A DNA stretch of 64,000 nt, from the NCBI GenBank assembly GCA_964387275.1, contig CAYLVW010000001.1:150619-214618 (forward strand), read 5' to 3'. The DNA is from an uncultured Candidatus Saccharibacteria bacterium (GTDB lineage: Bacteria > Patescibacteriota > WWE3 > UBA101185 > UBA10185). The notes below the pieces were generated by a model. That model did not search any database. It worked only from the letters and a program-made list of their open reading frames with translations, and had not been told where the DNA came from. Within the stretch, counting starts at the first letter, position 1, and each line of letters starts with the position of its first letter. The position numbers were made by a program, and so were the translations under genes. Below, piece by piece: positions 31,701 through 57,928 of the stretch.

Positions 31701-31738
31701 GGGCCGGGTTATTGGAGCGAAGCTCAATAACCCGGCCC
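31701..31738. terminator. 14-bp GC-rich inverted repeat (GGGCCGGGTTATTG / CAATAACCCGGCCC, 10-nt loop) between convergent genes.
   Basis: Perfect inverted repeat read directly from the sequence. It sits between the + strand GT4 gene (ends 31648) and the - strand gene (ends 31770). There is a T-rich stretch upstream and an A-rich stretch downstream. Confidence 0.5.
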
Positions 31739-31769
31739 CTAAGCCGTCCTACAAAACCAAAACAAAAGC

Positions 31770-32012
31770 CTAGCAAGGATAATACCTCTTACCAGTTTCA
31801 GGATCCAGAATGTAATATCCTCTAGGATACTGGAAAGAAACTATAACTTCACTAGATTCAGCCAGTTCTTTAGGAATATAGAACCTGGTCATAGCGCTAT
31901 AATCAGTATCATTAACTCTAAACATAAGCTTAGCTGTATTTTCCTCCATTGCCACAGTTATGTCTGAAACTTTAATAGTTGGCCAGTCTCTTGCTGGTAC
32001 AATAGAAAGCAT
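31770..32012 (-). CDS. Hypothetical 80-aa protein, the only minus-strand gene in the island.
   Basis: Strong RBS (AGAGGAGAG) 6 nt upstream of the ATG at 32012. The sequence MLSIVPARDWPTIKV...YPRGYYILDPETGKRYYPC has no recognisable family. The longer ORF-track version (to 32144) would overlap the divergent GT4 start. Confidence 0.45.
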   Translation of the reverse strand: MLSIVPARDWPTIKVSDITVAMEENTAKLMFRVNDTDYSAMTRFYIPKELAESSEVIVSFQYPRGYYILDPETGKRYYPC

Positions 32013-32078
32013 GATTCTCTCCTCTTTCACCAAAAGTCCTCTCTTAATTAAGACAATAATATCATGTACAATAACCTT

Positions 32079-36005: not shown

Positions 36006-36009
36006 ACTT

Positions 36010-36699: not shown

Positions 36700-36702
36700 C
36701 TT

Positions 36703-38850: not shown

Positions 38851-38894
38851 CTGGTGTTTGACGATCCCACCTAAATACCTGCACAATAAAGTAT

Positions 38895-41302: not shown

Positions 41303-41304
41303 CT

Positions 41305-42849
41305 ATGAACAAAAAACTTTTTGGTAGGGATTTAGACTATAGAAAAGTTTATGTACTTTTATTTATAGTCATATTTTTTATAACTAGATTTTTATTTGTT
41401 GGGTATGAAGAAATCAATCCTGATACAGTCAATTGGTATTATAGGTCTGAACAATTTATTGTCGGATTAAAAAGTTTACAGTTAGAAAAGACCTACCAAC
41501 ACTACCATCCTGGTACTACTTTAATGTGGATCATGGGTATATCCACGGAGATTATTAAGAAAATTGACGCAGTTGGCGAAGTCATAAACAATGAAAACTT
41601 TTTAGTTTTTCATATTGTGACTAAAGTAGTTTTTGGTTTGGTTCAATTAGTATTATCTTTAGCTATTTTATATTTACTTTCCAAAATACTCGGGTTTGTA
41701 AAGGCTCTTTTAGTAGTTTCTATTTTTTCATTTGAACCGTTTTTTATAGGGAATTCAAGGTTTTTACACTTGGATGTTTTGTTATCTCTTTTTATAATAA
41801 CCACACTGGCCCTATCATTCTATAATTATTATGTTAGGGAGAAGCCTTCTTCTTATATATCAATTATTATAGGCATCTTAGCACTACTTACTTTTTTAAC
41901 CAAAAGCATAGGTATTAGTGTTTTACCCATGATTGTATTGACTATAATGCTTGGTAATCCCAAATATAGACTTCAAAGTATTATTATTGTATTAAGTAGT
42001 TTGATATTAATGGCCCCGATATTCTTGCCTGCTCTTATTAAAGACTATTCAGGAACTATAGCACTTATTTTTAAAGAGGCACTAAGAATCGGGAATAAAA
42101 ATGGCCACGAGCAGATTTTCTTGGGAGAGGAAACTATAAATGCTGGGTTTTGGTTTTATTTTGTATCTCTACTGATAAAAGTTTCTCCCTTACTTATGGT
42201 GAGCACGGTAACTGGGGTTATAGTTTTTACTAGCAACATTAAAAAGAATATTACTAAGATAGATAAGTTTTATTTACTTAGTGCTCTTTACTATGTAGGT
42301 TATTTTGTAGTGATGAGTCTGCTATCTAAAAAGCTTGATAGGTATATGATTCCAATGTTTCCATTTTTTTCTTTGTTTGCTGTTTATGCATTTAGCAAGT
42401 TCTATGACACTAAAAGCAACTTTTCAAAAGTAATGTCTGTGGTTTTTACTCTTTGTTTGTTTTTAAATGTTTATTCCTTGATAAATTTATTTCCCTATTA
42501 TTTTGTTTATGCTAGTCAGCTATCTGGTGGGCCCGTATTAGCTAATTCACTAATTGCCCAGAAACCATTCGGTCAGGGAGTTGTTTGGCTAAAGGATTAC
42601 TTGCTTGATAAGTACGGGGAACCTAAAAACGTAGGAATTTATGATCGAAAACCCCTTAGCATGATTTATCCTAATTCTAAATTATTCGATGTTAGGGAAT
42701 ATGACCCAACCAAGTATGATATTTTAGTACTAGCAGTAAATGAGGAGATTCCCGAGAAAGTTGAGAACGGAGACGCTGCCTTTAACTTAATGAATATTTT
42801 ATATATCAATAACCTGCCTTATTGGAGAATCTATGAGAAAGTTAAGTAA
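41305..42849 (+). CDS. Polytopic membrane protein, putative GT-C glycosyltransferase (paralog of 44301..45881).
   Basis: Shares the YHPGTTLMW motif (YHPGVPLMW in the paralog). Multi-TM N-terminal region followed by a soluble C-terminal domain. Confidence 0.5.
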   Translation: MNKKLFGRDLDYRKVYVLLFIVIFFITRFLFVGYEEINPDTVNWYYRSEQFIVGLKSLQLEKTYQHYHPGTTLMWIMGISTEIIKKIDAVGEVINNENFLVFHIVTKVVFGLVQLVLSLAILYLLSKILGFVKALLVVSIFSFEPFFIGNSRFLHLDVLLSLFIITTLALSFYNYYVREKPSSYISIIIGILALLTFLTKSIGISVLPMIVLTIMLGNPKYRLQSIIIVLSSLILMAPIFLPALIKDYSGTIALIFKEALRIGNKNGHEQIFLGEETINAGFWFYFVSLLIKVSPLLMVSTVTGVIVFTSNIKKNITKIDKFYLLSALYYVGYFVVMSLLSKKLDRYMIPMFPFFSLFAVYAFSKFYDTKSNFSKVMSVVFTLCLFLNVYSLINLFPYYFVYASQLSGGPVLANSLIAQKPFGQGVVWLKDYLLDKYGEPKNVGIYDRKPLSMIYPNSKLFDVREYDPTKYDILVLAVNEEIPEKVENGDAAFNLMNILYINNLPYWRIYEKVK

Positions 42850-44296
42850 CTTATGGTTATATTTAATAGTTACAATAGCAATTGTACTACGAGTGTTGTT
42901 TTTTTGGCATGGTCACCCGTTTGTGTTTCATCCAGATGAGCCTACTGTTGTGAGGTCTGCTCTCGAAGTCAGATTTTACCCAAATCCTGGACATTTTGAT
43001 TGGCCCCATCTATATATTTACATAAACTACATCGTATATATGATTTTTGCTTTTGTACGAAATATACTTAGTACTTCTGGTCTTGTTACTGAGGGACCTC
43101 TATTTGATGAAACAACTATATTTTATTATTTAACTAGAGTTTTATCTGGAGTGCTTGGGGGACTTACGGTAATCCCTGTTTATCTTACTGCTAAAACTTT
43201 TTTTAATTCCTCTAGGGTAGGTCTATTGGCTGGTTTGGTTATTGCTTTAATGCCTCTTCATGTGTGGAATTCTCACTTAGCTCTAATTGATGTACCAATG
43301 ATATTTTTTGTTTCGTGGGTTTTATACTTTGGTGCTCAAATCTATACAACAAGAAATTTAAGGTATTACATATTGGCTGGTATTTTTGTTGGTTTGGCAG
43401 CGTCTACAAAATACCATGGGGCATTTTCTGGAATATTTATTGCAGTAGTACATTTTATAGACTACAAATCTTTTTGGAAAAACCTAAGAGAACTTTATAA
43501 AGCTATTATAGCTGGAATTGTTAGTTTATTAGGTTTCCTTGTTGGCACACCTTACGCTCTAATTGATTTCACTACTTTTATTCGGACAGATGGCCCAAAA
43601 GGTGCCTTATGGCAGTTTACTAATGTAGGTCATGTTCCTTTTACTACACAAGTTGGCAAGTTTATATATAATTTATTTATTAGAATCCCTGATGACATTG
43701 GATACACATTTGCAGTTGTGTTGGTACTGGGGTTAATCTACTTTTTGTTTTCTAAAACATTTTCAAAAGGTCTTTTTCTTTTTTATACTATGTACTTGTT
43801 CCTAGTTTTTTATATATCAGGATTTGAGAAATCAAGGTCCCACTACTTGATGATTTCCTACCCGTTTATAGCAGTAGTTGTTGGGTATATGTTAGAGGTT
43901 GTTTCAGTTAAGTTTTCAAAAGTTATTAAGTACCTAGTATTATTTCTTGTGTTTATAGTTCCGTTAGGTATATCGATTTGGCAAAACTATATTTTATCCA
44001 AGGAGGATACTAGGGTTCAGTTATACCATTGGGTGTTAAGGCAGGGAGTAGTTAACAACTCTTATAACTATAGTTCAAATAACTTGAATATAATTTGGGA
44101 TAAAATTTCTACTAATAATGTAAACCGTGTTTTAGAGTCTTCCTACTTACCCTCTAGCAGTTCTTACTACATAATATCTGAAGAAGATTCCGTAACAGCT
44201 TTAGATAAGTTTAATGATTTACCAGGCACTGTTAAGACTCTTGAGACTTTTTCTCCGATAAACAGAAGAGGTCCTGTGATTTTGATAGCACAATAA
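42833..44296 (+). CDS. GT-C membrane glycosyltransferase, PMT_2/GT39-like.
   Basis: FHPDEPTVV in the first loop (the DE motif of PMT/ArnT-type enzymes). About 11 TM segments. Confidence 0.6.
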   Translation: MRKLSNLWLYLIVTIAIVLRVLFFWHGHPFVFHPDEPTVVRSALEVRFYPNPGHFDWPHLYIYINYIVYMIFAFVRNILSTSGLVTEGPLFDETTIFYYLTRVLSGVLGGLTVIPVYLTAKTFFNSSRVGLLAGLVIALMPLHVWNSHLALIDVPMIFFVSWVLYFGAQIYTTRNLRYYILAGIFVGLAASTKYHGAFSGIFIAVVHFIDYKSFWKNLRELYKAIIAGIVSLLGFLVGTPYALIDFTTFIRTDGPKGALWQFTNVGHVPFTTQVGKFIYNLFIRIPDDIGYTFAVVLVLGLIYFLFSKTFSKGLFLFYTMYLFLVFYISGFEKSRSHYLMISYPFIAVVVGYMLEVVSVKFSKVIKYLVLFLVFIVPLGISIWQNYILSKEDTRVQLYHWVLRQGVVNNSYNYSSNNLNIIWDKISTNNVNRVLESSYLPSSSSYYIISEEDSVTALDKFNDLPGTVKTLETFSPINRRGPVILIAQ

Positions 44297-44300
44297 GCTT

Positions 44301-45881
44301 ATGAAAAAATATTTGGAGCTAATTAAATATGAGTTTGGCATTTCTGTACTTTTTATTTTGTCGCATCTACCTTCTTTAGGTATAGATAATTTCAATACAG
44401 ATGTGTGGAAATGGAAAAAAAGAATATTTGATTTTTCCAGTGGTGTTTTTGGTTTGAGACCTGAGGAGACAGTTCAAACATACCATCCCGGTGTTCCTTT
44501 AATGTGGTTAGGTACTATAGCAATTAAATTTTACAATCTATCTAAAGATATTTTTAATAATGGCCAGGATTATCCAGATGTTCGGGAGATTTTTTATCTT
44601 GATTTTGCGCAGAAGTTTTTAGTTGTTTTGGGCATAGCTGTTGGAGTATTTTTTATGCTATGTGCGCTACGGAAAATACTCGGAACAAAAGGTGTAGTTG
44701 TAGCTGGGTTGCTGCTTATGTTTGAGCCTTTCTATTTGGCCCTTACCAGGGTTATACATCTTGAGGGTTTAACTTCGACATATTTGGTAGCATCCTTGCT
44801 GTGGTTATATGTTTGGGGTCAGGCCAGAAAGAAACTGTATCTAAGTATTTCAGCTATACTTGGGGTTATAGCAGTGCTTACTAAGACTTCAGCCTTAATT
44901 ATTGTTCCATTTTCTTTTGTATATATTCTGTTATTGACTAAACATCCAAAAGATATACTAAAATGGTTTGCTGTTTTTGTAGTTACTGCACTTGTAATGT
45001 GGCCTGCCTTACTTTTCAAACCTATGTATGTTATTAACTACTTATATACAGGCGTAACTGAGGTAGGGATAGAGGAGGGGCATGATCAGTTCTACTTTGG
45101 TAATTATGTAACAGACCCGGGTTGGACTTTTTATTTTGTAAGTATCGCTTATAGAACATCTCCGGCTGTATTTGTTTTATTTATTGTTTCATTGCTCGGT
45201 TTGTTGCGATACAAATCAGAGAGTAGAAAGTTTATCTTTTATATATTGGCTTTTATTTTACTTTATTTGGTCGAAATTACGCTTCCGACTAAAAAATTAG
45301 ACAGGTACATGCTGCCAATACTAATTGCTATGGTTGTATGTAGTTCAGTATTTCTTAACTACGTGATGGAAGCATTCAAACACAGGTATGTTTGGGTCAT
45401 TTCACTATTGGCAATAGTGTCCAGTTTATTTTACTCGGTTACATCACACCCAATATACCTTAATTACTACAGCCCATTATTTGGCGGGTTAGGGGCGGGT
45501 ATTCATGTGATCGAACCTAAATGGTTAATTGGTACAAATGAGATTATTAGCTATTTTAGAGATGTAAAAAGTAAAGAAGGGCTCAGTGATTTTAAGCAAG
45601 GAGAGAATATTGAGAATCTATTATATAGTCCCTTGCTAGCTAGTAAATTAACTGTAGCATTTCCTGAAAAATACTATACTCAAATACACCCATTTTTTAG
45701 GTTGATAAATAGTTGGGCAGTAATAGAAGACTTATCTGGTCAGGCAGTAAAGACTAAGTTTTTTGTATATCCTGTTTGGGATGATTATTCAAACCGTGAG
45801 ACAAGGTTTAAACTTGAGTACTATGGTGACATAAGTATTGGGGAAGTGCCTGTATACAAAGTATATAAAAGGGTAATTTGA
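44301..45881 (+). CDS. Polytopic membrane protein, putative GT-C glycosyltransferase (paralog of 41305..42849).
   Basis: YHPGVPLMW motif and similar architecture to the 41305 gene. Confidence 0.5.
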   Translation: MKKYLELIKYEFGISVLFILSHLPSLGIDNFNTDVWKWKKRIFDFSSGVFGLRPEETVQTYHPGVPLMWLGTIAIKFYNLSKDIFNNGQDYPDVREIFYLDFAQKFLVVLGIAVGVFFMLCALRKILGTKGVVVAGLLLMFEPFYLALTRVIHLEGLTSTYLVASLLWLYVWGQARKKLYLSISAILGVIAVLTKTSALIIVPFSFVYILLLTKHPKDILKWFAVFVVTALVMWPALLFKPMYVINYLYTGVTEVGIEEGHDQFYFGNYVTDPGWTFYFVSIAYRTSPAVFVLFIVSLLGLLRYKSESRKFIFYILAFILLYLVEITLPTKKLDRYMLPILIAMVVCSSVFLNYVMEAFKHRYVWVISLLAIVSSLFYSVTSHPIYLNYYSPLFGGLGAGIHVIEPKWLIGTNEIISYFRDVKSKEGLSDFKQGENIENLLYSPLLASKLTVAFPEKYYTQIHPFFRLINSWAVIEDLSGQAVKTKFFVYPVWDDYSNRETRFKLEYYGDISIGEVPVYKVYKRVI

Positions 45882-45885
45882 TTTT

Positions 45886-47175
45886 ATGGTAAGAAAGCTG
45901 CTTAATTTTATTAAGACGACTCCTATATTTGATACTGCAATGGTTTCTGGAAGTATATTTATTGCAAGTTTTCTTGCCTATTTATTGCAGTTTTACCTTG
46001 GAAGATCCCTAAGTGTTAGCGACTACGGAGATTTTGGCGCGTTACTATCTTTGTCCTATCTAATTGGTGTACCAGCTACAGTGTTTGGCTTATCTCTGAC
46101 AAAACAGGTTTCAGAAGTATATGCTACTCATAAAGATCTAATACCCGCATATTTTACTAAGATATTTATATTAAGTGTTATTCCTGGTGTATTGTTGTTT
46201 ATTTTACTTAGTGGCTTATCTTCGTTTTTTGCTACATATTTTAATCTAAACAACTATCCGGTACTTATTGCCTTCTCAATATCTGCTGGTTTCTCCTTTT
46301 TTTCTTTGGTGGCGCCATCATTTTTGCAAGGACTTCAGAGATTTAAGTCCTACTCAGTTTTTGTGATTGTATACAATATTTTTAGAACTGTAATACCTGT
46401 GGTTTTTGTATTTCTTGGTTATAGACTAATTGGTGTATTTTTTGGACTCGCGTTGGCGGCTTTTTTTGGTTTCTTATATTCTTACGTTCATTTAAAAGAT
46501 ATTTTCTTTAAAAAAATTCAAACAAGTTTTGAGGATAATACCATATTAAAGAAGTATATATATAATTTGTTTTCTTTCTCAGTTCCTGTGTTGTTGGTTA
46601 ATCTTTCTATGATGGCTTTAAACAATATTGATGTGCTAATGGTGAAGAGGTATTTTTCTCCAGAAGAAGCTGGGCACTATGTGGCTCTAGTTACCGTCGG
46701 TAAAGTGTTGTTATTTGGGGCAGGAACTGTAGCAACTGTGATGTACCCAATGCTTACTGCTGAATTTGCAAAACGAACACTAACATTAAGTAAGTTTTTT
46801 TTGTACTTTACACTGCAAGTTGTCGTTGTTGTTGTTTCTATTTTAATTTTCAGCTTATTTCCTAACTTGATTGTTGGAGTTATGTTTGGGTCAAAGTTTT
46901 TGCCGATTGTGAGTTATTTGCCTCTATTTTCAGTTTTTATGGGCTTATATGTTTTGGTAAACTTTATGGTTTTGTTTTTTCTAAGTATCAGTAGAAGTAA
47001 GGTTTTTCTAATTCAAATTCCGTTTGTGTTAGGGCAGTTTTATTTACTTAATTCTAATATTTCCTCTATAACTTCGTACATAACTATAAATATAGCTATT
47101 TCCTTTGCCCTACTAGCTGTTCTTTTACTGTACGGCTATATACAATATTCAACATGGAGAAGTCTAAAAAAGTAG
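45886..47175 (+). CDS. MOP-superfamily flippase (Polysacc_synt_3/Wzx-like), the second in the island.
   Basis: 12 to 14 TM segments. The N-terminus IFIASFLAYLLQFYLGRSLSVSDYGDFGALLSLSYL resembles the family consensus. Confidence 0.65.
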   Translation: MVRKLLNFIKTTPIFDTAMVSGSIFIASFLAYLLQFYLGRSLSVSDYGDFGALLSLSYLIGVPATVFGLSLTKQVSEVYATHKDLIPAYFTKIFILSVIPGVLLFILLSGLSSFFATYFNLNNYPVLIAFSISAGFSFFSLVAPSFLQGLQRFKSYSVFVIVYNIFRTVIPVVFVFLGYRLIGVFFGLALAAFFGFLYSYVHLKDIFFKKIQTSFEDNTILKKYIYNLFSFSVPVLLVNLSMMALNNIDVLMVKRYFSPEEAGHYVALVTVGKVLLFGAGTVATVMYPMLTAEFAKRTLTLSKFFLYFTLQVVVVVVSILIFSLFPNLIVGVMFGSKFLPIVSYLPLFSVFMGLYVLVNFMVLFFLSISRSKVFLIQIPFVLGQFYLLNSNISSITSYITINIAISFALLAVLLLYGYIQYSTWRSLKK

Positions 47176-47978
47176 TATCAGTAATAGTACCTGTATACAA
47201 AAAAGAAGCCACCATAATAAGTGATATAGATAGTATCTATAAGGCATTAGACTCCAGTAGATGGTCGTTTGAAATTATTCCTGTTATAGATGGTTTTGTA
47301 GACCGTTCTTATGAGAATGCGCTTAAGATAAAATATCCAGAAGTTAAAGTAGTAGGTTATAAAACTAATAGAGGCAAAGGTTACGCTGTGAGGTATGGTA
47401 TGGCTCAGGCAACGGGAGATTACATAGCCTTTATTGATGCCGGTATGGATATAAATCCTAATGGAATATCTTTAATTCTTGAGCATATGGAATGGTACAG
47501 AGCGGATATTATAGTTGGCAGTAAGAGGCATCCTGCATCTAAAGTTAAGTATTCTGCATTAAGAAGAATATATAGTTTCTGTTATCAGATGTTGGTATTT
47601 TTGCTTTTCCGACTGAAAATTCGAGACACTCAGGTTGGTCTTAAGGTTTATAGGAGAGAGGTATTGGAGCGTGTACTCCCAAGGCTAGTAGTAAAAACTT
47701 TTGCTTTCGATATTGAACTTCTTGCTGTTTCAAATAGATTAGGTTTTACTAGATTATACGAAGCTCCGGTTGAAGTAGCACTGGATTTTTCGAGTTCAAG
47801 CTTTAACTTAAGAAAGCCCATGTTCCTAGATCCTCAGATTAGAAATATTTTATACGACACTATTGCTGTTTTTTATAGGATGCATTTTTTAAAATACTAT
47901 GATGATGAGAACAGAATTAAGTGGGTATATGATAAAGAGCTTCAAATGCGTGTAAATACCGGGGAGATCTTGGAATGA
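47154..47978 (+). CDS. GT2 glycosyltransferase.
   Basis: VSVIVPVYKKEATI...IIPVIDGFVD...FIDAGMD has a GT-A DxD. Confidence 0.78.
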   Translation: MEKSKKVVSVIVPVYKKEATIISDIDSIYKALDSSRWSFEIIPVIDGFVDRSYENALKIKYPEVKVVGYKTNRGKGYAVRYGMAQATGDYIAFIDAGMDINPNGISLILEHMEWYRADIIVGSKRHPASKVKYSALRRIYSFCYQMLVFLLFRLKIRDTQVGLKVYRREVLERVLPRLVVKTFAFDIELLAVSNRLGFTRLYEAPVEVALDFSSSSFNLRKPMFLDPQIRNILYDTIAVFYRMHFLKYYDDENRIKWVYDKELQMRVNTGEILE

Positions 47979-48802
47979 TTACCAATGGACCTTTAGTGTC
48001 TGTATTAATACCCGTTTACAATACTGAGAAATATATAAAAGATAGTGTAGATAGCATTATTTCACAGACATATTCCAACCTTGAGATAATTGTCGTAGAT
48101 GATGCCTCTACAGATTCTACATACAGTATATTAAGTTCCTATAATGATCCTAGACTTCGTCTATATAGAAATGAAACAAACCTTTATATAGCTGAGAATA
48201 GAAACAAGGCGATTAGCTATGCCACTGGCAAATACATCGTGTGGCAAGATGCTGACGATATTTCACTACCTACTAGAGTAGAAATTCTTGTTTCGTTTAT
48301 GGAAAGTCACTCCGATGTGGGGATCTGTGGTTCATATCTTCAATCCTTTGACGAAACAGGGGATAAGGATATAAGGGAATATGCTACAAATGACAGTATG
48401 CTTAGAAAGAACATTTTTAAGTATTCTCCTGTAGCTCAGCCAACCGCAATAATTCGTAGAGATATCTTAGACTTGGTAGGTAAATACAATCCAAAATTTC
48501 CGCCTGCTGAAGATTTGGATATGTCATTTAGAATAGGCTCAGTTAGTAAGTTTGCAAATGTACCACAGGTATTATTAAAGTATAGAGAGCATAGTGCATC
48601 AAATACATCAACTAGAATGCTAAGGCAAATCGATTCCACGCTAGATATACGTAAGTCTAATATGAATAATAGCAATTATAGCTTTGATATTTCAGATTAC
48701 GTAGCGTATTATTTAACAAGTATTACAAAATTATTGCCCCCATTTTTTGTAATTAAATTATTTAAAATTTCTAGATTAATTAGTAGGAAAATATTTAAAT
48801 GA
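47975..48802 (+). CDS. GT2 glycosyltransferase.
   Basis: [26 protein letters not shown]...[12 protein letters not shown]...QDADD. Confidence 0.85.
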
Positions 48803-50814
48803 AAAAAGCAATTATAACTGGTATTACAGGGCAAGATGGATCTTACCTTGCAGAGTTACTCCTCACCAAAGGTTATCAAGTTCACGGTATAGTAAGAAGG
48901 GCGTCAGAGTTTAATACATCTAGAATTGATCACTTATATAAAGACCCGCATATTCCTAACAATTCCTTTTTTTTACACTATGGGGATCTAACTGATAGTG
49001 GGGGTCTAGAAAGGCTTATTCGTGAGATAAATCCGGATGAAATATACAATATAGGGGCTCAAAGCCATGTAAAAGTCAGTTTTGAGATTCCTGAGTACAC
49101 AGCAAATACAGATGCTCTAGGTACAATGAGGATTTTAGAAATTATTAGAAATAACAATCCAAAAATAAAGTTCTATCAGGCTTCTAGTAGCGAGATGTTC
49201 GGTAAAGTTTTAGAAGTTCCTCAAAAAGAAACTACACCATTTTATCCAAGAAGTCCTTATGGTGTTTCTAAAGTTTTCGGACATCACATAGCAGTGAACT
49301 ACAGAGAAAGTTATGGAATTTTTGCCTGCTCAGGAATACTTTTTAACCACGAATCACCCAGACGCGGTAAGACTTTTGTTTCTCGCAAGATAGTCAGGGC
49401 TTTGGCAGATATAAAAACCGGCAAACAAGATATTTTATACTTAGGTAATTTGGATGCTAAAAGAGATTGGGGTTATGCAAAAGAGTATGTAAATGCTATG
49501 TGGTTAATGTTACAGCAGAAAGAACCTGATGACTTTGTTATTGCGACTGGTGAGACCCACACGGTTAGGGAGTTTGTGGAAGAAGCTGGAAAATACTTTG
49601 GTTACGATATAGTCTGGAAAGGTACTGGTTTTGATGAGATTGGGTATGACAAGAAAACTGATAAGATAATTGTAAAAATCGACAAAAACTACTATAGGCC
49701 TGCTGAAGTCGATTTACTCATTGGCGATTCCTCAAAAGCAAAAAAAGTATTGGGATGGGAACCTAAAGTAAAGTTTAAAGATCTCGTTACCATAATGTGC
49801 GACGCCGAAGTCATAGGCGAAAAAACTGAAGATTTCTCTCATTTACTCAAAATAAGCGTTGGGAAATTCGGAGACGATAAAGGCGCAAAAATTTATGTAG
49901 CAGGCCACAAGGGTTTGGTAGGATCTGCTATTGTTAGAAAACTTAATAAAGAAGGTTACACAAATCTTTTACTTAGAACTAAAGAAGAATTGGATCTTAC
50001 AAATGGAGATCAGGTCGCCAAATTTTTTTCTGATGAGAAACCTGAGTATGTATTTTTAGCTGCTGCTAAGGTCGGTGGGATACTTGCAAACCGTGACTTT
50101 GCAGCTGATTTTATTAGTGATAATTTAAGAATTCAAAACAATATAATACATAATTCTTATTTAAACGGTGTGAAGAAACTAGTATTTTTGGGTTCTACAT
50201 GCATATACCCTAAGCTTGCTCCACAACCATTAAAAGAAGAGTATTTACTGACAGGCCCTCTTGAGCCTACTAATGAAGCGTATGCGGTTGCAAAGATAGC
50301 TGGGATAAAAATGTGCGAGTACTACAACAAGCAGTATGGGACCAATTACATTTCTGTTATGCCTACAAATTTGTACGGGCAAAACGACAAATTTGATTTG
50401 CATACTTCTCATGTTCTTCCTGCTATGATTAGAAAGTTTTATGAAGCTAAAATAAACGGCAACACTGATGTGACATTATGGGGAACAGGTAATCCTAAGA
50501 GAGAGTTTTTGCATGTAGATGATTTAGCTGACGCTGTAGTATTTTTAATGCAAAATTATGATAGCAGCGAAATCATTAATATAGGTTACGGGGAGGATTT
50601 TAAAATCTCGGAGGTAGCCCAGATGATATCTGACATTGTTGGTTTTCAGGGTAAAGTTGTTTATGATTTGAGTAAGCCTGATGGCACACCAAGAAAACTT
50701 GTAGATACCACTAAGTTATTTAATTTAGGTTGGAGACCCAAATTTCATATAAAAGAGGGATTAAAACTTGCCATAGATTGGTATATTGAAAATGTCGCAA
50801 AAGGATCCAAATAA
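48799..50814 (+). CDS. gmd/fcl: Bifunctional fusion: GDP-mannose 4,6-dehydratase (N-terminal ~350 aa) plus GDP-L-fucose synthase / GDP-4-keto-6-deoxymannose 3,5-epimerase-4-reductase (C-terminal ~315 aa).
   Basis: The N-terminal half aligns along its length with E. coli Gmd ([22 protein letters not shown]...FNHESPRRG...YYRPAEVD). The C-terminal half aligns with E. coli Fcl ([19 protein letters not shown]...LAAAKVGGI...GSTCIYPK...KPDGTPRKL). It is a single uninterrupted ORF with a short linker ([13 protein letters not shown]). Confidence 0.88.
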
Positions 50815-51448
50815 TATTAAGGATTATTTTGAGAAGCAGTTTAAAGTTGATTTATTTAGTAAACTGGATTTCCCGTTTGAGGAAGGGAAATCCTTACTTG
50901 ATGCTGGGTGTGGAGATGCTGTAAATAGTGATATATTTCAATCTTTTTATAAGCTTAAGCTGAAGTCTTTTGACTTATACGAGCACCAAAATATTAAAAA
51001 GTTTCAAATTGATTTTAGAATTGGGTCAGTTCTTGATATACCTTTTGCAGATAACACATTTGACTATGTTTACTTACAGGATGTTTTACATCACATCGAT
51101 GAAGAAAATCAGGACAGGGATAAACATATAAAAGCACTCTATGAACTTAAAAGAGTAGTAAAACCAGGGGGTTATGTAATTATTGTAGAAGCAAAAAGAT
51201 ATAACCCTATGTTTTATCCATTTATGGTTAAATACCTAGGCCACGACCATTTTACTCATGGATATTATAAGAAGCTTGTTTCTGAGGCTTTTTCAGACTG
51301 TCCAGAGCAATTGCATAAGAGTTTTGAAGCACATTTTTACTTTTCAAGAGTATTAAGCTTTTGGAAATTGTACGAAAGATTTATGGAGAAATATAGTCCA
51401 GTAGACTTCTTAGCTTATAATGCATCTATTATTAAAAAACCTTTATGA
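50786..51448 (+). CDS. Class I SAM-dependent methyltransferase.
   Basis: [12 protein letters not shown] (motif I) and [10 protein letters not shown] (post-II). Confidence 0.75.
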
Positions 51449-52572
51449 AAAGTTTTTTGATTGTAACTCATAAGTTTCTTACATTACCTGATGACGAGCT
51501 TGTTTCTTATCTAATTGACAAAAACATTTCAGTATTGCACATTAATCATTCATTTAATGATGCTCCAGATAGAGTGAGTAAGTGCGAATACTATGTGGGT
51601 GGTAAAAGAGTTTCCACTTGTAAGTCTTGGGATTTTAAGTTTCTACCAGAACCTTTAATTTACTTGAAGGAGTTGTTGTTTACATTTTATTACGTAGCTA
51701 GGTATTTTAAGAAATACGATTACTACATTGGTCTGGATGGTTTATGTGTTTTTTTTGGGTTATTATTGAGGTTTTTTGGAGTAGTTGGTAAGGTAGTATA
51801 TTGGGCTATTGATTTTGTGCCAAAGGATAGGTTTAGTTCTAAGCTTAAAAATTTTATATATACAAGTATTAATATTCTAGGTTATAGAAATTGTGATGAG
51901 ATGTGGGATTTATCTCCGAGGATGCAGGAAGCAAGATCTGAATTTTTGGGAGTATCTACTAAAGACTATAAATCTCTAAAGGTAGTTCCGTATGGGTTTT
52001 GGACTACCCGTATTAAAACTTACAAATATGAAGAATCTGACAAGAAAAAATTAGTTTTCATGGGTCACTTGATTGAAAAGCAGGGAGTTCAATTGTTGTT
52101 GCAAGCCTTAGTGTTATTGCCAGATGAAATTACATTAAAAATTATTGGCATAGGAAACTATAAAGAAAGTCTCGTAGGTTTGTCAAAATCTTTGGGTATT
52201 TATCACAGATGTGAATTTGTTGGTAAAATCGAAGACATCAGAATTTTAGAAGATGAGATAGCTAAATGTGCAATAGCTGTTGCTCCCTACATAAAATCTT
52301 TAGATACTTGGACTTATTATGCAGATCCAGGCAAAGTTAAAACATATATTGCCTGTGGTGTACCGATTTTACTTACAGATCTTCCTTGGAATAGTTCTGA
52401 CATAGTAGAGAGTAAATGTGGGTTTATAATCCAGGAAGATCCAAAAGATATTGCTGATAAGGTACTAGTATTATTAGATATTAAGCTAAATAATTTATAT
52501 CGTGAGAATTGTATTAACTATTCCAAATCTTATGATTATGAAAAAATATTTAGTGGGGCTGTAAGTTTATGA
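51445..52572 (+). CDS. GT-B glycosyltransferase (GT4-like C-terminal domain).
   Basis: [22 protein letters not shown]...FVGKIED...[21 protein letters not shown] resembles a Glycos_transf_1 core. Confidence 0.6.
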
Positions 52573-53051
52573 CACAGGATATAATTTACGAAAAAACGAT
52601 ACCTAGAAAGAATCTATTAATAACTGGATTACTTTTTTTAAAGTTCCCTCTATATATACCTTTTGTTAATATGTTGGTGAGGAAATGGCTAAAGCACAGT
52701 TCTGATATAGAAATCATCCCTGGTTTTATGAGTTTTTACGCAAATATCTATGCTAAAAACGCATTTTTATGTGACACATATTTTGCAGATTATGCGCCGG
52801 TGCACATTGGTGAGGGTACACATTTTTCATTTCAATGTATGGTTTTAACATCAAAACATGATAAATCAGATTTCCAGAAAATTATTTGTTCTCCGGTTAA
52901 TATAGGAAAAAATGTATATATAGGAGCTAGGGTTTTGATACTTCCCGGTGTGAGTATTGGAGATAATGCTGTAATTGGTTCTGGGTGCGTCGTTTCTAAA
53001 GATGTCCCTAGTGGGGCTTTTGTGGTGGGAAACCCTATGGTGATAAAGTGA
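52569..53051 (+). CDS. Left-handed beta-helix (hexapeptide repeat) O-acetyltransferase, maltose/galactoside acetyltransferase-like.
   Basis: [45 protein letters not shown] contains tandem hexapeptide repeats. Confidence 0.8.
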
Positions 53052-54100
53052 AAGTTTTATACCATGTGCCACATTTAAATACCGTATATGCTGGAAGAAC
53101 TATATATAAGGGTTACGAAAATGCTTGGAAGTACCTAGGGCACTCATTTAGATTTCTCACGTCTGAGGATAAAGCCAAAGAGGTATTTTACTCCTATGAG
53201 CCGGATATTTTTGTAACAAGTTTAAATATTTATAACCTCAAGTTTTTAGATCTTAGCTTGCTTAAACAAGTAAAAAAGGACCTAAGGACAAAAGTTTTTG
53301 TTAATACACCTTTTTGGAACTCTCCATTTACAGTACTTAGGCCTAACGAGGCGGGCAGTTTAGCTAAAAATAGAAGCTACATTGAGCTTATTAAGTCAGG
53401 TAACTATGGTGATGTTTACTATAATGTGTGTGAGAAGGACGATGAGAGAATGGCGGGTTTTGATAAAGAATTTGGATTTGGTCACGAAACTATATTACTT
53501 GCCGCAGACGATATTATTAATTACCCCGAGACTTCTGAGCTATTCACATCAGATATTTCATTTTTAGGGACAAATTTACCAGATAAGAGAAAATTTTTTG
53601 AAGAAAGACTTTTTCCGTTAGGTGAGAAATATAAACTTCGCCTATATGGTCAGGATTGGTCTTACTTAGATAAACTAACTGGGATGGTAAAAAAATTTGG
53701 CCAATTGTTTGATGTTCCTTATTTAAAAAATCTACAGAAACCAACACTAGCGCTTGAAGATGAGAGGAAGATTTATTTTAATTCCATAATTAGTTTGAAC
53801 ATACACGAAGAATACCAGAGGATATATGGAGGAGATTGTAATGAGAGGACATTTAAAATCCCTCTGTGTGGAGGATTTGAGGTTGTAGACGATATTTCCT
53901 GTATTAGAAAATATTTTATAGACGGAAAAGACATAATAATTGCAAAAGACAAGAATGACTGGTTTGAGAAAATCGATTATTATATTAGAAATCCGGAGAA
54001 AAGAGCTCCGATAATTGAAGCAGGTCGAGAAAAAGTAGCAAATAAACACACATATAAAAACAGAGTTAATCAAATTATAGGGATTTATAATAAACTATGA
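53048..54100 (+). CDS. CgeB-like glycosyltransferase (Glyco_trans_1_2 family).
   Basis: C-terminal [18 protein letters not shown]...[31 protein letters not shown] matches the CgeB-family consensus (N.RtFEipacGg...YYL.nPeeR..IA..G...v...HTY..R). Confidence 0.65.
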
Positions 54101-54687
54101 GCAATAAAGTTATATTAAATTTAGGTTGTGGGAAGACACGTATTCCTAATTCTGTAGGAGTGGACTATTCGCAAATCCCTGGTTTTACTGATGTAGTACA
54201 TGATTTGGACACTATCCCATACCCCTTTGACTCGAATAGTGTTGATGAGATACATATGTACCATGTACTTGAACATCTCTCAAGTCCGATAAAAAAGCTA
54301 GAAGAGTTGCATAGAATTCTCAAGAAAGGTGGAATGCTTTACATGAGAATGCCTCATTTTTCTTCTATGGGAGCTTTTACAGATATCACTCATGTAAGAC
54401 CTTTTGGATTCTATTCATTTGATTGCTTTGAGCCCAACCATTATCAGCATTTCTATACTAAAGCAGAGTTTGAAATTGTTGAGAGAAGAATCAAATATTT
54501 CGGTTTGTGTGGTAATAAAGGTGACTATGCTAAATATATACATGGTAATTCATGCCCTATTCTTATAGTTCCTTTTGTAACTGTACTAGACTTTTTTATA
54601 AATATAAATCCGATGTTTTTTGAGAGATTTTGGGGATATTTAGTGGGAGGCGCTACAGAGGTAGTTGTTACTTTAAAAAAGCTATGA
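54097..54687 (+). CDS. Class I SAM-dependent methyltransferase.
   Basis: VILNLGCGKTRIP (motif I), DEIHMYHVLEHL and KKGGMLYMRMPH. Confidence 0.75.
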   Translation: MSNKVILNLGCGKTRIPNSVGVDYSQIPGFTDVVHDLDTIPYPFDSNSVDEIHMYHVLEHLSSPIKKLEELHRILKKGGMLYMRMPHFSSMGAFTDITHVRPFGFYSFDCFEPNHYQHFYTKAEFEIVERRIKYFGLCGNKGDYAKYIHGNSCPILIVPFVTVLDFFININPMFFERFWGYLVGGATEVVVTLKKL

Positions 54688-56135
54688 GTAATATCGAGAA
54701 AGATCAAGAAAAGTTTTTTAATGAAAATTCAGTTAAAAACTTTAAGATAAAAAAGGACTTATTTTATGATTGGGCTAATAAGGAGCAATTTGAAGGTTTT
54801 GATTGGTTATCTGACTCACAGACAATATTGGAGTATGGTTGTGGGACAGGTGGTTCTCTTGATGTACTATTTGATAGACATGACAGAGCAAAATTCAATA
54901 TTATAGGTGTTGACATAGCTGAGATGGCTCTTGAGAAAGCTAAGGAAGCATACCCAGAGTTTAAATTTATTAAGATTACTGATAATTCTATACCTGATGT
55001 TTTAGAAAAGTCAGTAGATGCGTCTTTTATGTTTCATGTACTTCATCATTCAACTGGACATCAGAAAATGTTTGATGAGATATTCTCAAAACTAAAGCCT
55101 GGTGGGAAATTTCTAATTAATGATTTAACTTCTAGAAACCCAATAGTGTTATTGGGTAGGGAGGTTTTTTCGAGATTTAGTTTTTTCTTTGCTCCGAAAT
55201 TTGAAGAAGACTTAGTTGTAGATGGTAAAATACCGGAAAAGTATCGTGTAGATGTAAGTGAGAAGGTACAACAGCTCCAACAGGCTGGTTTTATAATAAG
55301 TGAGGTGTCTTATGGTCATTTATTCTTTTTTCTTTTCCACTGGATTGACAAATTTACTAATTTATCCCAGTTTAGTTTTGTAAAATATATATACAGTCTG
55401 ATTATTAATATAGAGAGTATCTTTACAAAGATTCCGTTTTTTCACAATTTTTGTGAAGTGGTTAGTATTAAAGCTATCAAGCCCCATGACTCTCAGAAGC
55501 TAAATTCTGTGTTAGGGTCAGGGGACTATTCCGATTCTTTTAATATGGAAGTATACAATCAGGTAAGTGTTAATTCCCATTGTCTTGATGTTGGGTGTTG
55601 GAGTGGGAATTTGGGTAAGAAATTGGTAGTTTCAAAAGGTTGTACTGTTGAGGGAGTTGAGATAAATGAGACCGCTATTATTAAAGCTTTGGGTAACGGG
55701 TATGCTAAGGTTTATAGAGTAAACTTGAACTCTGAGAAACTAGATTTTTCTGATATAACTACAAAGTATGACTATATTGTTCTTGCAGATGTTTTAGAGC
55801 ATCTAGTAAACCCTGAAGCTGTACTTACAATTTTAAAAGACTTTTTAAAAGAAGATGGGAAGTTGGTTGTGTCTGTTCCAAATGTAGCTTTTATTTTGAA
55901 CAGATTGAACCTACTTATTGGTAATTGGAACTATCGGGATTTTGGTACATTAGACAAAACACATCTAAAGTTTTATACGTTTTCTACGATACAAAAACTA
56001 CTAAAAGACTGTGGTTTTAATATCGTCAAAATAAAAGGTTATAACCAGTTTGCAAGTCTAAAAACTCTTGGGTTGTTTAAAGTATTTTTTCCGAAGATAT
56101 TTTCATACCAGATACTTATAACTGCTAGAATATAG
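54684..56135 (+). CDS. Tandem two-domain SAM-dependent methyltransferase.
   Basis: Domain 1 has ILEYGCGTGGSLDVL...FMFHVLHH...LKPGGKFLIND. Domain 2 has CLDVGCWSGNLGKKL...VLADVLEHL...LKEDGKLVVSVPN. Start moved to MSNIEK (54684), a 4-nt overlap with the upstream stop. Confidence 0.75.
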   Translation: MSNIEKDQEKFFNENSVKNFKIKKDLFYDWANKEQFEGFDWLSDSQTILEYGCGTGGSLDVLFDRHDRAKFNIIGVDIAEMALEKAKEAYPEFKFIKITDNSIPDVLEKSVDASFMFHVLHHSTGHQKMFDEIFSKLKPGGKFLINDLTSRNPIVLLGREVFSRFSFFFAPKFEEDLVVDGKIPEKYRVDVSEKVQQLQQAGFIISEVSYGHLFFFLFHWIDKFTNLSQFSFVKYIYSLIINIESIFTKIPFFHNFCEVVSIKAIKPHDSQKLNSVLGSGDYSDSFNMEVYNQVSVNSHCLDVGCWSGNLGKKLVVSKGCTVEGVEINETAIIKALGNGYAKVYRVNLNSEKLDFSDITTKYDYIVLADVLEHLVNPEAVLTILKDFLKEDGKLVVSVPNVAFILNRLNLLIGNWNYRDFGTLDKTHLKFYTFSTIQKLLKDCGFNIVKIKGYNQFASLKTLGLFKVFFPKIFSYQILITARI

Positions 56136-56137
56136 GT

Positions 56138-57187
56138 ATGGATAAACCACTTCTTACTATTTGTATACCAGCATATAACAGACCTGATACCTTATCTGAA
56201 GTATTAGAATCCATAAAAAAACAAAACTCCGCAGAAATTAGAGTAATTGTGTCAGATGATGCATCACCAGATGCTAATGCTATGAGAATTGCAGTAGATC
56301 CGTATCTACAGAGTATGGAGAACCTTTCTTATCACAGAAAGGAGAGTAACGTTGGGTATAGTGCAAATGTTATTTCCCTATACGAGATGGCTGATACAAG
56401 GTACATTTGGTTTTTTTGTGATGATGACATTCCATTGGAGGGTTCTATACAAACAGTCTTAGGGCAAATTAAATCAAAGGAACCTGTTGTCGCTGTTTTT
56501 AATCATATGCAATTTGATCCTTATGAGCGATATATTGAAGCTGGTGTGAAGCATGATGTTGTATATACAGATATCTCCCAGATAAGAGACTATCAAGAGC
56601 TTCAAAGAATAACTTTTTTGTCAGTCCTTGTTGTTGAGAAGAGAGATATTAGTCTGGAGCAGTTAAAGCAGACAGATTACACTAATAATGTGTTTGTCCA
56701 ACTCACTTTATCTTTGATGCTTTTAAGTGACAAGTTTAGATACTGCCAGTTAGCAAAACCTATACTCCATAGAAATGTGGGATATAACTACGGAGATTTT
56801 TTCAAATTCTATATAGTGGATCATTTGCGAGCCGTAAACATTGTTAAAACCAAATTTGATCCGAATAAGTTTTTATTTTGGTCATTTAGGCACCTTCCTA
56901 TAGCATTCAATCTTTACCTATCTCAGAAACTTGGTTTATACGCGTACAGAAAAAGGCCAACTCTTAAAACTATTAAAGATATTTTTAGGTATTGGGGAGC
57001 GCTGGGAATACTTCCGATCGTAATTCCAGTAGTATCATTTTTTATACCCTCAATACTTCTTAAAGGTATATTTATGCTTATGTTAATCAAAGATCATGGC
57101 TATGAGAGAGCAAAATACTTATATGCAAAAAACATCAACCGTGCTTATAATGATACAAGAAAAACAGGATTTATAAATTATAGATAG
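56138..57187 (+). CDS. GT2 glycosyltransferase.
   Basis: LLTICIPAYNRPDTLSEVLESIKKQ...VIVSDDASPD...FCDDD. Confidence 0.8.
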   Translation: MDKPLLTICIPAYNRPDTLSEVLESIKKQNSAEIRVIVSDDASPDANAMRIAVDPYLQSMENLSYHRKESNVGYSANVISLYEMADTRYIWFFCDDDIPLEGSIQTVLGQIKSKEPVVAVFNHMQFDPYERYIEAGVKHDVVYTDISQIRDYQELQRITFLSVLVVEKRDISLEQLKQTDYTNNVFVQLTLSLMLLSDKFRYCQLAKPILHRNVGYNYGDFFKFYIVDHLRAVNIVKTKFDPNKFLFWSFRHLPIAFNLYLSQKLGLYAYRKRPTLKTIKDIFRYWGALGILPIVIPVVSFFIPSILLKGIFMLMLIKDHGYERAKYLYAKNINRAYNDTRKTGFINYR

Positions 57188-57191
57188 GCAT

Positions 57192-57902
57192 ATGAAATAC
57201 TTTACAAAATTTTTTACATATTTCAACTTTTTGAAGACATACCTTATCCCTGGTAGTAAGAATTCAGTAATAGATGCTTTTCACACGTTATACTACGACT
57301 CTTACTTGGTGGGAGGTACTTGGTCTAGAAACACATTTTTAGGAACTCCTATACAGAAATGTCCGATGGATCTTCAAACCTATCAAGAAATACTATATGA
57401 AACTAAGCCAGATCTCATAATCGAATGTGGCACTGCCTTTGGTGGGGGTGCCTTATACCTGGCTAGTTTGTGTGATTTGATAGGCGTTGGCGAAGTTGTG
57501 ACTATTGATGTAGTAAATAGACCTGAATTCCCAAAACACCCAAAAATTACTTATCTAACTGGTTCCTCTACTGATCCAGAGATAGTAGCTAAAGTAAGAG
57601 ATCTAGCTAAAGGAAAAAGTAGGGTTATGGTCATATTAGACTCAGATCATAGAATGTCTCACGTTCTTACAGAACTTGAACTCTATCATTCATTTGTAAC
57701 TGCTGGGTGTTATCTAATAGTAGAAGATACTAATGTAAACGGTCATCCTGTAAGGCCTGAGCATGGTGAAGGCCCTTATGAGGCACTTACAAGGTTTTTG
57801 GAAATCAACAAAAGCTTTGAGATAGATAAGCTAAGGGAAAGCGGTTATATAACTTTTAACCCTAGTGGCTATCTTAAGAAAATAAAAACTCAGAATTTGT
57901 AG
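57192..57902 (+). CDS. CmcI/cephalosporin-hydroxylase-family (PF04989-type) sugar O-methyltransferase.
   Basis: YLVGGTWSRNTFLGTPIQKCPMDLQTYQEILYETKPDLIIECGTAFGGGALYLA matches the CmcI-family core used by rhamnosyl/fucosyl O-methyltransferases. Confidence 0.7.
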   Translation: MKYFTKFFTYFNFLKTYLIPGSKNSVIDAFHTLYYDSYLVGGTWSRNTFLGTPIQKCPMDLQTYQEILYETKPDLIIECGTAFGGGALYLASLCDLIGVGEVVTIDVVNRPEFPKHPKITYLTGSSTDPEIVAKVRDLAKGKSRVMVILDSDHRMSHVLTELELYHSFVTAGCYLIVEDTNVNGHPVRPEHGEGPYEALTRFLEINKSFEIDKLRESGYITFNPSGYLKKIKTQNL

Positions 57903-57928
57903 AAGTTTTCTATTACTGCCCTCATAAA

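Follow-up and report, generated by a model that had tools for sequence, protein, structure and literature searches.

An in-frame Gmd-Fcl fusion predicted to carry the whole route from GDP-mannose to GDP-L-fucose in a WWE3-like member of the Patescibacteria

Introduction

[quoted passage not shown] The reading frame considered here lies in a 64,000-nucleotide stretch of contig CAYLVW010000001.1 (positions 150,619 to 214,618), hereafter the window, which comes from a WWE3-like member of the Patescibacteria with a tiny, reduced genome. An initial annotation, made from the letters of the DNA, had proposed a single-chain fusion of the two enzymes. The analysis below supports the view that the 671-aa protein is a real in-frame fusion, predicted to encode the whole route from GDP-mannose to GDP-L-fucose. 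The protein is a real variant of a familiar pathway, predicted to be bifunctional, and both of its component enzymes are thoroughly known.

Results

A single reading frame with two full-length domains

The fused gene runs without an internal stop from an ATG to a TAA and encodes 671 aa, exactly as initially annotated. Its ATG overlaps the TGA of an upstream GT2 gene (ATGA, 48799-48802), it is translationally coupled to its neighbours within a glycan island, and its GC content is uniform between the gmd half and the fcl half. The features of the gene are as follows.

48799..50814, + strand: complete fused gmd-fcl ORF (identical protein called in the JGI, Logan and NCBI assemblies)
48799..49812, + strand: N-terminal GDP-mannose 4,6-dehydratase domain (TIGR01472, PDB matches, AF2)
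49186..49272, + strand: Gmd catalytic residues S130 (49186-49188), E132 (49192-49194), Y154 (49258-49260) and K158 (49270-49272), by alignment
49813..49881, + strand: inter-domain linker, aa 339-361 (gap between profile matches)
49882..50796, + strand: GDP-L-fucose synthase (Fcl/WcaG/GMER, EC 1.1.1.271) domain, aa 362-666 (NF047922, 1bsv)
50194..50412, + strand: Fcl catalytic residues S466 (50194-50196), C468 (50200-50202), Y495 (50281-50283), K499 (50293-50295) and H538 (50410-50412), by 1bsv alignment

The Gmd half matched TIGR01472 with 570.7 bits (cutoff 415), aa 2-337 covering profile positions 1-338 of 342, whereas models of dTDP/UDP-glucose dehydratases reached at most 180 bits on the fused protein, far under their cutoffs. 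Solved Gmd structures, human GMDS and E. coli 1db3 among them, were matched with E=1e-141 to 1e-122 (7kf3 on aa 2-338, E=1.8e-141), and the AF2 model of this domain had a pLDDT mostly above 85. The homology to Gmd claimed at the outset was thus correct, but it extends beyond the proposed end point at YYRPAEVD to about aa 338. A Rossmann NADP(H)-binding motif of the GxxGxxG type is present as G8-I-T-G11-Q-D-G14, and its three glycines are invariant among 26 fused homologues. We take S130, E132, Y154 and K158 to correspond to T133, E135, Y157 and K161 of E. coli Gmd, a numbering that reportedly goes back to Somoza et al. 2000. The catalytic Glu, Tyr and Lys were found in 187 of 187 Gmd domains. 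At the Thr position the fused protein reads QASSSE against QASTSE in the solved-structure alignment; a reading of Ser130 as the sign of an impaired or fusion-specific dehydratase was rejected, because 67 of 143 unfused Gmds (47%) also have Ser at this position, which makes it a normal variant.

For the Fcl half, the match to NF047922 runs from end to end (aa 362-666 on profile positions 2-305 of 308), with a score of 490.3 bits within the whole protein and 478.9 bits for the isolated half, i.e. 10-21 bits under the cutoff of 500; the next-best family scored 83.5 bits. Two fused homologues scored 523.7 bits (P0028, which passes) and 481.8 bits (P0033) on the same profile. E. coli Fcl (1bsv) matched aa 364-666 with an E-value of about 1e-105 (2.6e-105 / 2e-106), and full-length PDB matches to both halves at such E-values exclude chance. 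Here too the initially noted homology held but stopped short, since it continues past KPDGTPRKL to about aa 666 (...DWYIEN). The NADPH-binding motif of this half is G369-x-x-G372-x-x-G375. In the residue-by-residue alignment with 1bsv, S466 falls on S107, C468 on C109, Y495 on Y136, K499 on K140 and H538 on H179, so that the catalytic S-Y-K set which had been recognised earlier is indeed present, and C468, Y495, K499 and H538 are invariant among the 26 fused homologues. In E. coli GMER, S107, Y136 and K140 form the SDR triad for C4 reduction, and C109 and H179 are established as the acid/base pair for epimerisation.

Between the two profile matches lie about 23 residues (aa 339-361) instead of the 8-10 estimated at first, and within them only about 10 (aa 346-355) have an AF2 pLDDT below 50. 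This linker is poorly conserved, with 57% aa identity to that of a diverged relative (P0002), and the linkers of fused homologues vary in sequence and span 12-37 aa or more. The linker lacks any in-frame ATG, GTG or TTG at which a separate Fcl could start, the only near candidates being ATA and ATT codons; the ancestral fcl start Met is gone from it, while many fused homologues retain theirs.

Conservation of the fused frame

Identical DNA of the fused gene was found in JGI 3300005324, in Logan SRR12762304 and on an NCBI 420-kb contig, and two of the retrieved loci (L001, L002) match the window at 100% identity. Because these three assemblies may share one population, independent support comes mainly from P0002 (SRR29476910), which has the same architecture and frame at 83% protein and 73% nucleotide identity. 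Synonymous sites are saturated between the two genes, and the sole indel in the linker is one of 6 nt, in frame. The same comparison gave a pN of 0.11/0.12 against a pS of 0.90/0.81 across the two domains, which shows that both are under purifying selection. A third member of this fused lineage is P0003. The stop or frameshift near nt 49860 that would have separated two genes was absent from all three assemblies, and the full-length profile matches, intact catalytic residues and selection on both halves bear out the proposed in-frame fusion.

Distribution of Gmd-Fcl fusions

None of 80 related GTDB loci has a single ORF that spans both domains, in agreement with the earlier remark that the activities are normally separate proteins. 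In these loci gmd and fcl are separate genes, mostly adjacent or overlapping, which provides a one-step route to a fusion. The 70 or more full-length GTDB matches were considered as possible fusions, and this was rejected, since ORF analysis returned adjacent pairs of separate genes each time.

A survey of homologous fusions, as the initial annotation had suggested, placed fused proteins in at least 44 clusters (90% identity). Both domain orders are represented, Gmd→Fcl by 24 clusters and Fcl→Gmd by 20, and several clusters are present on multiple contigs and samples. They occur across bacteria and in at least one green alga. In a representative library at 50% identity the best match was a 661-aa Fcl→Gmd protein with 46% identity, but this library merges fused proteins with unfused representatives and hence gives no census of fusions. 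An apparent case of two fused paralogues (P0013 and P0025) on one 128,635-bp contig was discarded, the two having no sequence overlap and a GC content of 0.446 versus 0.511. By these sequence comparisons, the Gmd-Fcl fusion is rare yet recurrent. At least two origins can safely be assumed and many are probable, the NJ trees having too little resolution for an exact count of fusion events.

A glycan island around the fused gene

The fused gene is embedded in a co-directional island of glycan-biosynthesis genes, identified by Pfam and NCBIfam scans (where single positions are given, they are those of the individual genes).

27248..63629, + strand: glycan-biosynthesis island, ~36 kb
27248, 28363, 36010, 47154, 47975 and 56138, + strand: GT2 genes
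30449, 32064, 33257 and 51445, + strand: GT4 genes
53048, + strand: Glyco_trans_1_2 gene
29115, + strand: UDP-Glc/GDP-Man dehydrogenase
38895 and 45886, + strand: two flippases
42833, + strand: PMT_2/GT-C gene
36703, + strand: DUF2079 gene
50792, 54097 and 54630, + strand: methyltransferases
57192, + strand: rhamnosyl-O-methyltransferase-like gene
52569, + strand: hexapeptide acetyltransferase

The genes downstream of the fusion are partly syntenic with the P0002 locus (L083). This island is the likely consumer of GDP-fucose. The Pfam and NCBIfam scans of the window showed no GDP-mannose supply genes (manB/manC), no recognisable dedicated fucosyltransferase family and no DegT/ColD-type enzyme of the colitose/perosamine branch; the last of these means that the keto-intermediate is not diverted nearby to colitose or perosamine. 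No second copy of gmd or fcl is found within the window, and Rfam gave no match in it.

Proposed mechanism

The sequence shows a real fusion with two intact domains, whose chemistry, product and benefit we infer. The best explanation, which we hold to be highly probable, is an inherited fusion with both domains intact that makes GDP-L-fucose for the surrounding glycan island. The fusion would have arisen in an adjacent gene pair in which gmd lost its stop and fcl its start, giving one chain of 671 aa with gmd preceding fcl. The N-terminal domain, with bound NADP+, would carry out oxidation at C4, loss of water across C5-C6 and re-reduction, and so yield GDP-4-keto-6-deoxy-D-mannose. The C-terminal domain would then epimerise C3 and C5, with Cys468 and His538 as acid and base, and reduce C4 with NADPH via Ser466, Tyr495 and Lys499, and the resulting GDP-L-fucose would pass to the glycosyltransferases of the cell-surface glycan island. 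The benefit would most likely lie in obligatory 1:1 co-expression, and in enforced proximity and stabilisation on a flexible tether of ~23 aa, in a reduced genome.

Alternative explanations

Since the source is a metagenome assembly and the gmd and fcl ORFs of related genomes often abut or overlap in different frames, one spurious indel could have merged two neighbouring genes in silico, and the loci identical to the window (L001, L002) perhaps do not stem from independent populations. The same sequence was nevertheless obtained from three different assemblers and sources, P0002 keeps the frame at 73% nucleotide identity with its 6-nt linker indel, P0003 adds a further member to the lineage, the relic fcl start Met has been replaced within a 23-codon linker that has no stop, and there are dozens of further fused clusters, of which several recur on more than one contig. 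We therefore regard such an artefact as extremely improbable. Scarcely more credible is a protein that is effectively monofunctional, in which one domain is a decayed, non-catalytic passenger. Nothing specific speaks for it apart from the fact that databases give such proteins one function only ('GDP-mannose 4,6-dehydratase' or 'GDP-L-fucose synthase'), and it conflicts with catalytic and cofactor-binding residues that are intact in both halves, with a pN/pS that is equally low in both, and with the lack of another gmd or fcl in the window to supply the missing step.

A real fusion might also have a C-terminal Fcl paralogue that makes a different GDP-6-deoxyhexose, for instance of the 6-deoxy-L-talose or colitose type. 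The NF047922 score below the cutoff keeps this conceivable, the Fcl-like domains of some other fused homologues are clearly diverged (197-310 bits), and the neighbouring methyltransferases, with the rhamnosyl-O-methyltransferase-like protein, point to a modified deoxyhexose in the glycan. However, the shortfall is just 10 bits on a profile covered end to end, every one of the best solved relatives is a GDP-fucose synthase (E around 1e-105), the equivalents of S107, C109, Y136, K140 and H179 are all kept, and the window has no ColD/RfbH-type 3-dehydratase as needed for colitose, so that a product other than GDP-L-fucose appears improbable. A separate matter is how the two active sites would cooperate in a GDP-L-fucose-forming fusion. 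Channelling of GDP-4-keto-6-deoxymannose, as initially put forward, is conjecture: the AF2 monomer consists of two confident domains and a low-confidence linker (pTM 0.55, pLDDT 88; linker pLDDT <50) with no confident inter-domain interface. In its full form, the domains would be docked in a fixed geometry, possibly in a higher-order oligomer, and pass the intermediate directly between active sites. Both Gmd and Fcl are oligomeric, as established from crystal structures, so that fused chains might come together compactly, and convergent fusion in both orders suggests selection for physical association. In addition, Arabidopsis MUR1 and GER1 are reported to form a non-covalent GMD-GER complex that stabilises GMD (Nakayama et al. 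2003, cited from PMC11501016). Yet the linkers vary in length and sequence, the AF2 monomer has no confident domain packing, and either domain order works, which argues against one specific geometry; we consider direct transfer unlikely, and see no sign of a rigid substrate tunnel.

Discussion

In the full-text literature searched, which included 2'-fucosyllactose strains, brown-alga fusions and giant-virus glycan reviews, no Gmd-Fcl fusion, whether natural or engineered, was described, nor did we find biochemical data on a natural one, and the natural fusion is apparently undescribed. With the two-protein pathway (E. coli colanic-acid Gmd and Fcl/WcaG; human GMDS and TSTA3/FX) it shares domain families, predicted chemistry and catalytic residues, and its order, Gmd then Fcl, is that of the usual adjacent genes; the difference is that the pathway is encoded by separate ORFs, in 80/80 of the GTDB loci, and here by one chain with a ~23-aa tether and no internal start codon. 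An architectural parallel is found in plant RHM1-3. These enzymes, which are described as products of gene fusion (PMC8987622), perform the three activities of their 6-deoxyhexose pathway together, and likewise have in one chain a 4,6-dehydratase SDR at the N terminus and a 3,5-epimerase/4-reductase SDR at the C terminus. They convert UDP-glucose to UDP-L-rhamnose, however, with other SDR subfamilies (the lineage of UDP-glucose dehydratase and UDP-rhamnose synthase, NRS/ER), and because the two halves of the present protein match the Gmd and Fcl profiles, the latter 10 bits under its cutoff, it is RHM-like in architecture but not a member of the RHM family.

Another pair of consecutive GDP-fucose-forming enzymes, L-fucokinase plus GDP-fucose pyrophosphorylase, is fused in Fkp / FK-GFPP of Bacteroides and brown algae (PMC6418280; PMC12732313). 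That enzyme serves salvage from free fucose with unrelated kinase and nucleotidyltransferase folds, whereas the present route is de novo from GDP-mannose; the 'gene fusion' of brown algae was accordingly dismissed as a Gmd-Fcl precedent, being FK-GFPP. In MUR1-GER1 the same two enzymes are physically associated, though as separately encoded, non-covalently bound eukaryotic proteins, and a fusion would make such an association permanent ('Rosetta stone').

It is possible, though we think it doubtful, that recurrent fusion in both orders marks a physical coupling of Gmd and Fcl which is under selection and matters for function, the benefit of which could be stabilisation of a labile dehydratase, protection of the reactive 4-keto intermediate or altered feedback control by GDP-fucose. 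Were this so, the Patescibacteria protein would obligately produce GDP-fucose on a single chain, with kinetics beyond those of the separate enzymes, and could become a compact part for the engineering of fucosylated glycans.

On the preferred reading, that of an inherited fusion with two intact domains, an active protein would be the GDP-fucose counterpart of plant RHM, with dehydration, double epimerisation and reduction carried out by one polypeptide. It would offer a compact, stoichiometrically fixed GDP-fucose module for biotechnology, e.g. for human-milk oligosaccharides, a natural system in which channelling of the unstable 4-keto intermediate can be tested, and Rosetta-stone evidence for a functional Gmd-Fcl interaction. 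The enzymology is textbook, which makes the advance incremental. Because fused proteins are annotated with one of their two functions, the capacity for fucose synthesis is misjudged in some genomes. For the biology of the Patescibacteria, the fusion flags a surface glycan that would contain fucose and is probably O-methylated and acetylated.

One reading frame encodes complete Gmd and Fcl domains

A single ATG-to-TAA open reading frame at 48799-50814 (+) encodes 671 residues with zero internal stops, as seen both in the ORF listing and in the raw sequence. Its start overlaps the stop of the upstream GT2 gene (ATG and TGA shared as ATGA) and its 3' end is overlapped by a downstream methyltransferase gene; gene packing this tight, on both sides, is what an operon would show. 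Pfam matched GDP_Man_Dehyd and Epimerase twice each in the protein. In NCBIfam, residues 2-337 covered positions 1-338 of 342 of the gmd profile TIGR01472 (570.7 bits vs a cutoff of 415), and residues 362-666 covered positions 2-305 of 308 of the Fcl profile NF047922, with a score of 490.3 bits that is 10 bits below the curated equivalog cutoff of 500. No model for a bifunctional Gmd-Fcl form came back from NCBIfam. Residues 2-338 matched bacterial, human and plant Gmd structures (E=1e-141 to 1e-122) and residues 364-666 matched the solved E. coli Fcl (E=2.6e-105). The stop-free Gmd-Fcl frame proposed in the initial annotation was therefore borne out by the ORF call and by full-length profile and structure matches, whereas its linker of 8-10 residues was not: the gap between the profile matches is ~23 residues (339-361).

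Judged by their sequences, both domains are ordinary Gmd and Fcl family members. In the Gmd half, the Rossmann glycines G8, G11 and G14 and residues E132, Y154 and K158 were invariant among 26 fused homologues, the latter three being unchanged in all 187 Gmd domains compared. Ser130 occupies the position of E. coli Thr133; since Ser is also found in 67 of 143 unfused Gmds, we consider it a normal variant. A residue-level alignment of the Fcl half with E. coli Fcl (1bsv) equated S466, C468, Y495, K499 and H538 with S107, C109, Y136, K140 and H179, respectively, which, after the roles in E. coli GMER, we take to be the reductase triad and the epimerisation acid/base pair. C468, Y495, K499 and H538 were invariant across the fused set.

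The fusion is maintained through divergence

The two activities had been described as normally separate proteins, and indeed gmd and fcl were separate ORFs in 80 of 80 loci recovered from GTDB species representatives (0/80 fused). In related genomes the two genes lie side by side, and often their ORFs touch or overlap in different reading frames, so that one indel could fuse them, whether in the cell or during assembly. That the fusion is genuine and not such an assembly error is shown by four lines of evidence. The identical 671-aa protein was present on four contigs (JGI 3300005324, Logan SRR12762304 and a 420-kb NCBI contig), and two retrievable loci matched the window DNA at 100% over 8.0 and 5.5 kb; these copies are independent of the assembler, though they possibly derive from one population. 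In addition, a homologue from a separate run (P0002, SRR29476910) has the same architecture at 83% protein and 73% DNA identity. Synonymous sites between the two are saturated (pS 0.81-0.90), and pN for the Gmd domain, the Fcl domain and the linker is 0.11, 0.12 and 0.30, respectively; the sole linker indel is exactly 6 nt. We therefore conclude that selection kept the reading frame through substantial divergence; no frameshift or stop separates the halves in the identical assemblies or in P0002.

Many Gmd→Fcl homologues keep a Met 4-5 residues ahead of the Fcl motif AKIYVAGH, plausibly the ancestral fcl start. This Met is replaced by D in the window protein and by L in P0002. From M333 to the Fcl domain, the window ORF lacks any ATG, GTG or TTG codon in frame. 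Fcl is therefore producible only within the fusion. GC content is uniform (0.36 in both halves), and the window holds no second gmd or fcl.

Fusions recur in both domain orders

The initial annotation had called for a survey of homologous fusions, and dozens were found. Domain-wise BLAST, clustered at 90% identity, gave 24 full-length Gmd→Fcl and 20 Fcl→Gmd fusions among the best 120 clusters, plus truncated ones. Several recur: P0004 lies on 4 contigs from 3 samples, P0025 on 3 contigs, and the P0033 cluster has 27 members. Because both orders exist, there were at least two origins. In rough bootstrapped NJ trees the fused proteins were scattered among unfused ones, and the window protein grouped only with P0002 (bootstrap 100); the origins are probably many, the trees being too weak for an exact count. 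Database labels name one half: P0011 is only 'GDP-mannose 4,6-dehydratase [Candidatus Magasanikbacteria]' at NCBI, and other fused proteins are solely 'GDP-L-fucose synthase' at JGI.

The searches also returned other arrangements. In the three P0004 loci L084-L086 the fusion gene is inserted between two genes of a polysaccharide export system of the ABC-transporter-dependent type, wzm (ABC2_membrane) and wzt (ABC_tran + Wzt_C). It adjoins a gene for an 809-aa protein in which a flavin oxidase/GLF-like domain is joined to NeuB. P0028, from the green alga Tetraselmis striata (EukProt TSEL_038975, 655 aa), is an essentially linkerless Gmd→Fcl protein with both halves above NCBIfam cutoffs (564 and 524 bits), which may reflect contamination, horizontal transfer or independent fusion. 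In fusions of both orders (P0041, P0043-P0046, P0048, P0049, P0051 and P0057), the second domain is about 33-39% identical to the window Fcl half and scores 197-310 bits vs the cutoff of 500; it may be a eukaryote-like GDP-fucose synthase or a paralogue with another product. In P0074 (735 aa, 17-kb Logan contig) the partner of Gmd is an RfbH/ColD-like PLP enzyme (NF011936, 185 bits; Pfam DegT). Gmd fusions thus extend to a different downstream enzyme, and this one may serve a 3,6-dideoxyhexose (colitose-type) route. P0087, P0102, P0111, P0117 and several representatives (e.g. P0142, P0156, P0187, P0232, P0238, P0260) are interrupted Gmds of about 670-740 aa, with an insert of about 330 aa carrying a LAGLIDADG_3 domain in the conserved active-site motif NHE/SPRRG, between E185 and S186 (window numbering). 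The P0087 insert begins with Cys and ends with His-Asn followed by Ser, the canonical intein signature.

Linker and proposed mechanism

The fusion is one chain with two intact SDR domains under purifying selection and a flexible, poorly conserved tether. The AlphaFold2 model has a mean pLDDT of 88.4 and a pTM of 0.55, with linker residues 346-355 below pLDDT 50, and the linkers of homologues vary in length, the shortest being about 12 aa and the longest 37 aa or more. The N-terminal domain would form GDP-4-keto-6-deoxymannose; the C-terminal domain would epimerise C3 and C5 and reduce C4, and the resulting GDP-L-fucose would pass to glycosyltransferases of the surrounding island. Channelling was initially proposed; a strict tunnel-type form of it is possible but gains no support from the variable linker, the two domain orders or the model. 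The advantage is likely fixed stoichiometry, co-folding, stabilisation and proximity. Nakayama 2003, as summarised in PMC11501016, reported that the separate Arabidopsis MUR1 (GMD) depends on complexing with GER1 to be stable and active.

A glycan island surrounds the fusion

RpoB (2946-6212) is 74-78% identical to proteins of candidate division WWE3 and 'Patescibacteria group'. The window has 35% GC, 52 of its 55 ORFs of at least 120 aa lie on the + strand (1-64000), and no Rfam family, tRNAs included, reached the gathering threshold across the 64 kb. After rpoB/rpoC and ribosomal-protein genes comes a glycan island (about 27.2 to 63.6 kb) encoding glycosyltransferases (six GT2, four GT4, one Glyco_trans_1_2), one UDP-Glc/GDP-Man dehydrogenase, two Wzx-like flippases, a PMT_2/GT-C protein, a DUF2079 protein, a hexapeptide acetyltransferase and several methyltransferases, including a rhamnosyl-O-methyltransferase/CmcI-like one.

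Methyltransferase genes flanking the fusion and large island ORFs with no Pfam match at E<=1e-5
50792-51448, +, methyltransferase
54097-54687, +, methyltransferase
54630-56135, +, methyltransferase
57192-57902, +, methyltransferase
34398-36005, +, unmatched ORF
41305-42849, +, unmatched ORF
44301-45881, +, unmatched ORF
57929-59908, +, unmatched ORF
59905-61998, +, unmatched ORF
61998-63629, +, unmatched ORF

With no ColD/DegT enzyme encoded in the island, there is no obvious diversion of the keto-intermediate. manB and manC are absent from the window, and no dedicated fucosyltransferase family was recognised there; the GT4 gene a short way downstream of the fusion, syntenic in the P0002 locus (L083), is by inference a candidate fucosyltransferase. 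The flanking methyltransferases suggest that the 6-deoxyhexose of the glycan is O-methylated. One of them is a 501-aa double-methyltransferase fusion, and the CmcI-like product scored 206.7 bits in Pfam and 159.6 in NCBIfam (cutoff 400). In L083, neither the 218-aa methyltransferase nor the acetyltransferase (52569-53051) has a counterpart. The six unmatched ORFs (514-697 aa) probably encode uncharacterised proteins of this Patescibacteria lineage: membrane glycan polymerases, GT-C-like proteins or surface proteins.

Comparison with known systems

In architecture, the window fusion is to GDP-fucose what the trifunctional RHM synthases of plants are to UDP-rhamnose. A 2022 review of nucleotide-sugar dehydratases (PMC8987622) describes trifunctional fusions for the rhamnose route only and treats the synthesis of GDP-fucose, in all life, as the work of two enzymes. 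The known GDP-fucose fusions, Fkp and FK-GFPP, are different in that they belong to the salvage pathway (PMC6418280). Full-text searches, which covered a minority of subscription journals, turned up neither a natural nor an engineered Gmd-Fcl fusion, a weak form of negative evidence. A specialist would not be surprised by such a fusion, given that gmd and fcl usually lie next to each other and that their products are known to associate. Altogether, two textbook enzymes have been joined here in a fusion that is real and inherited, and that is rare yet recurrent; it is useful for annotation and possibly for glycoengineering.
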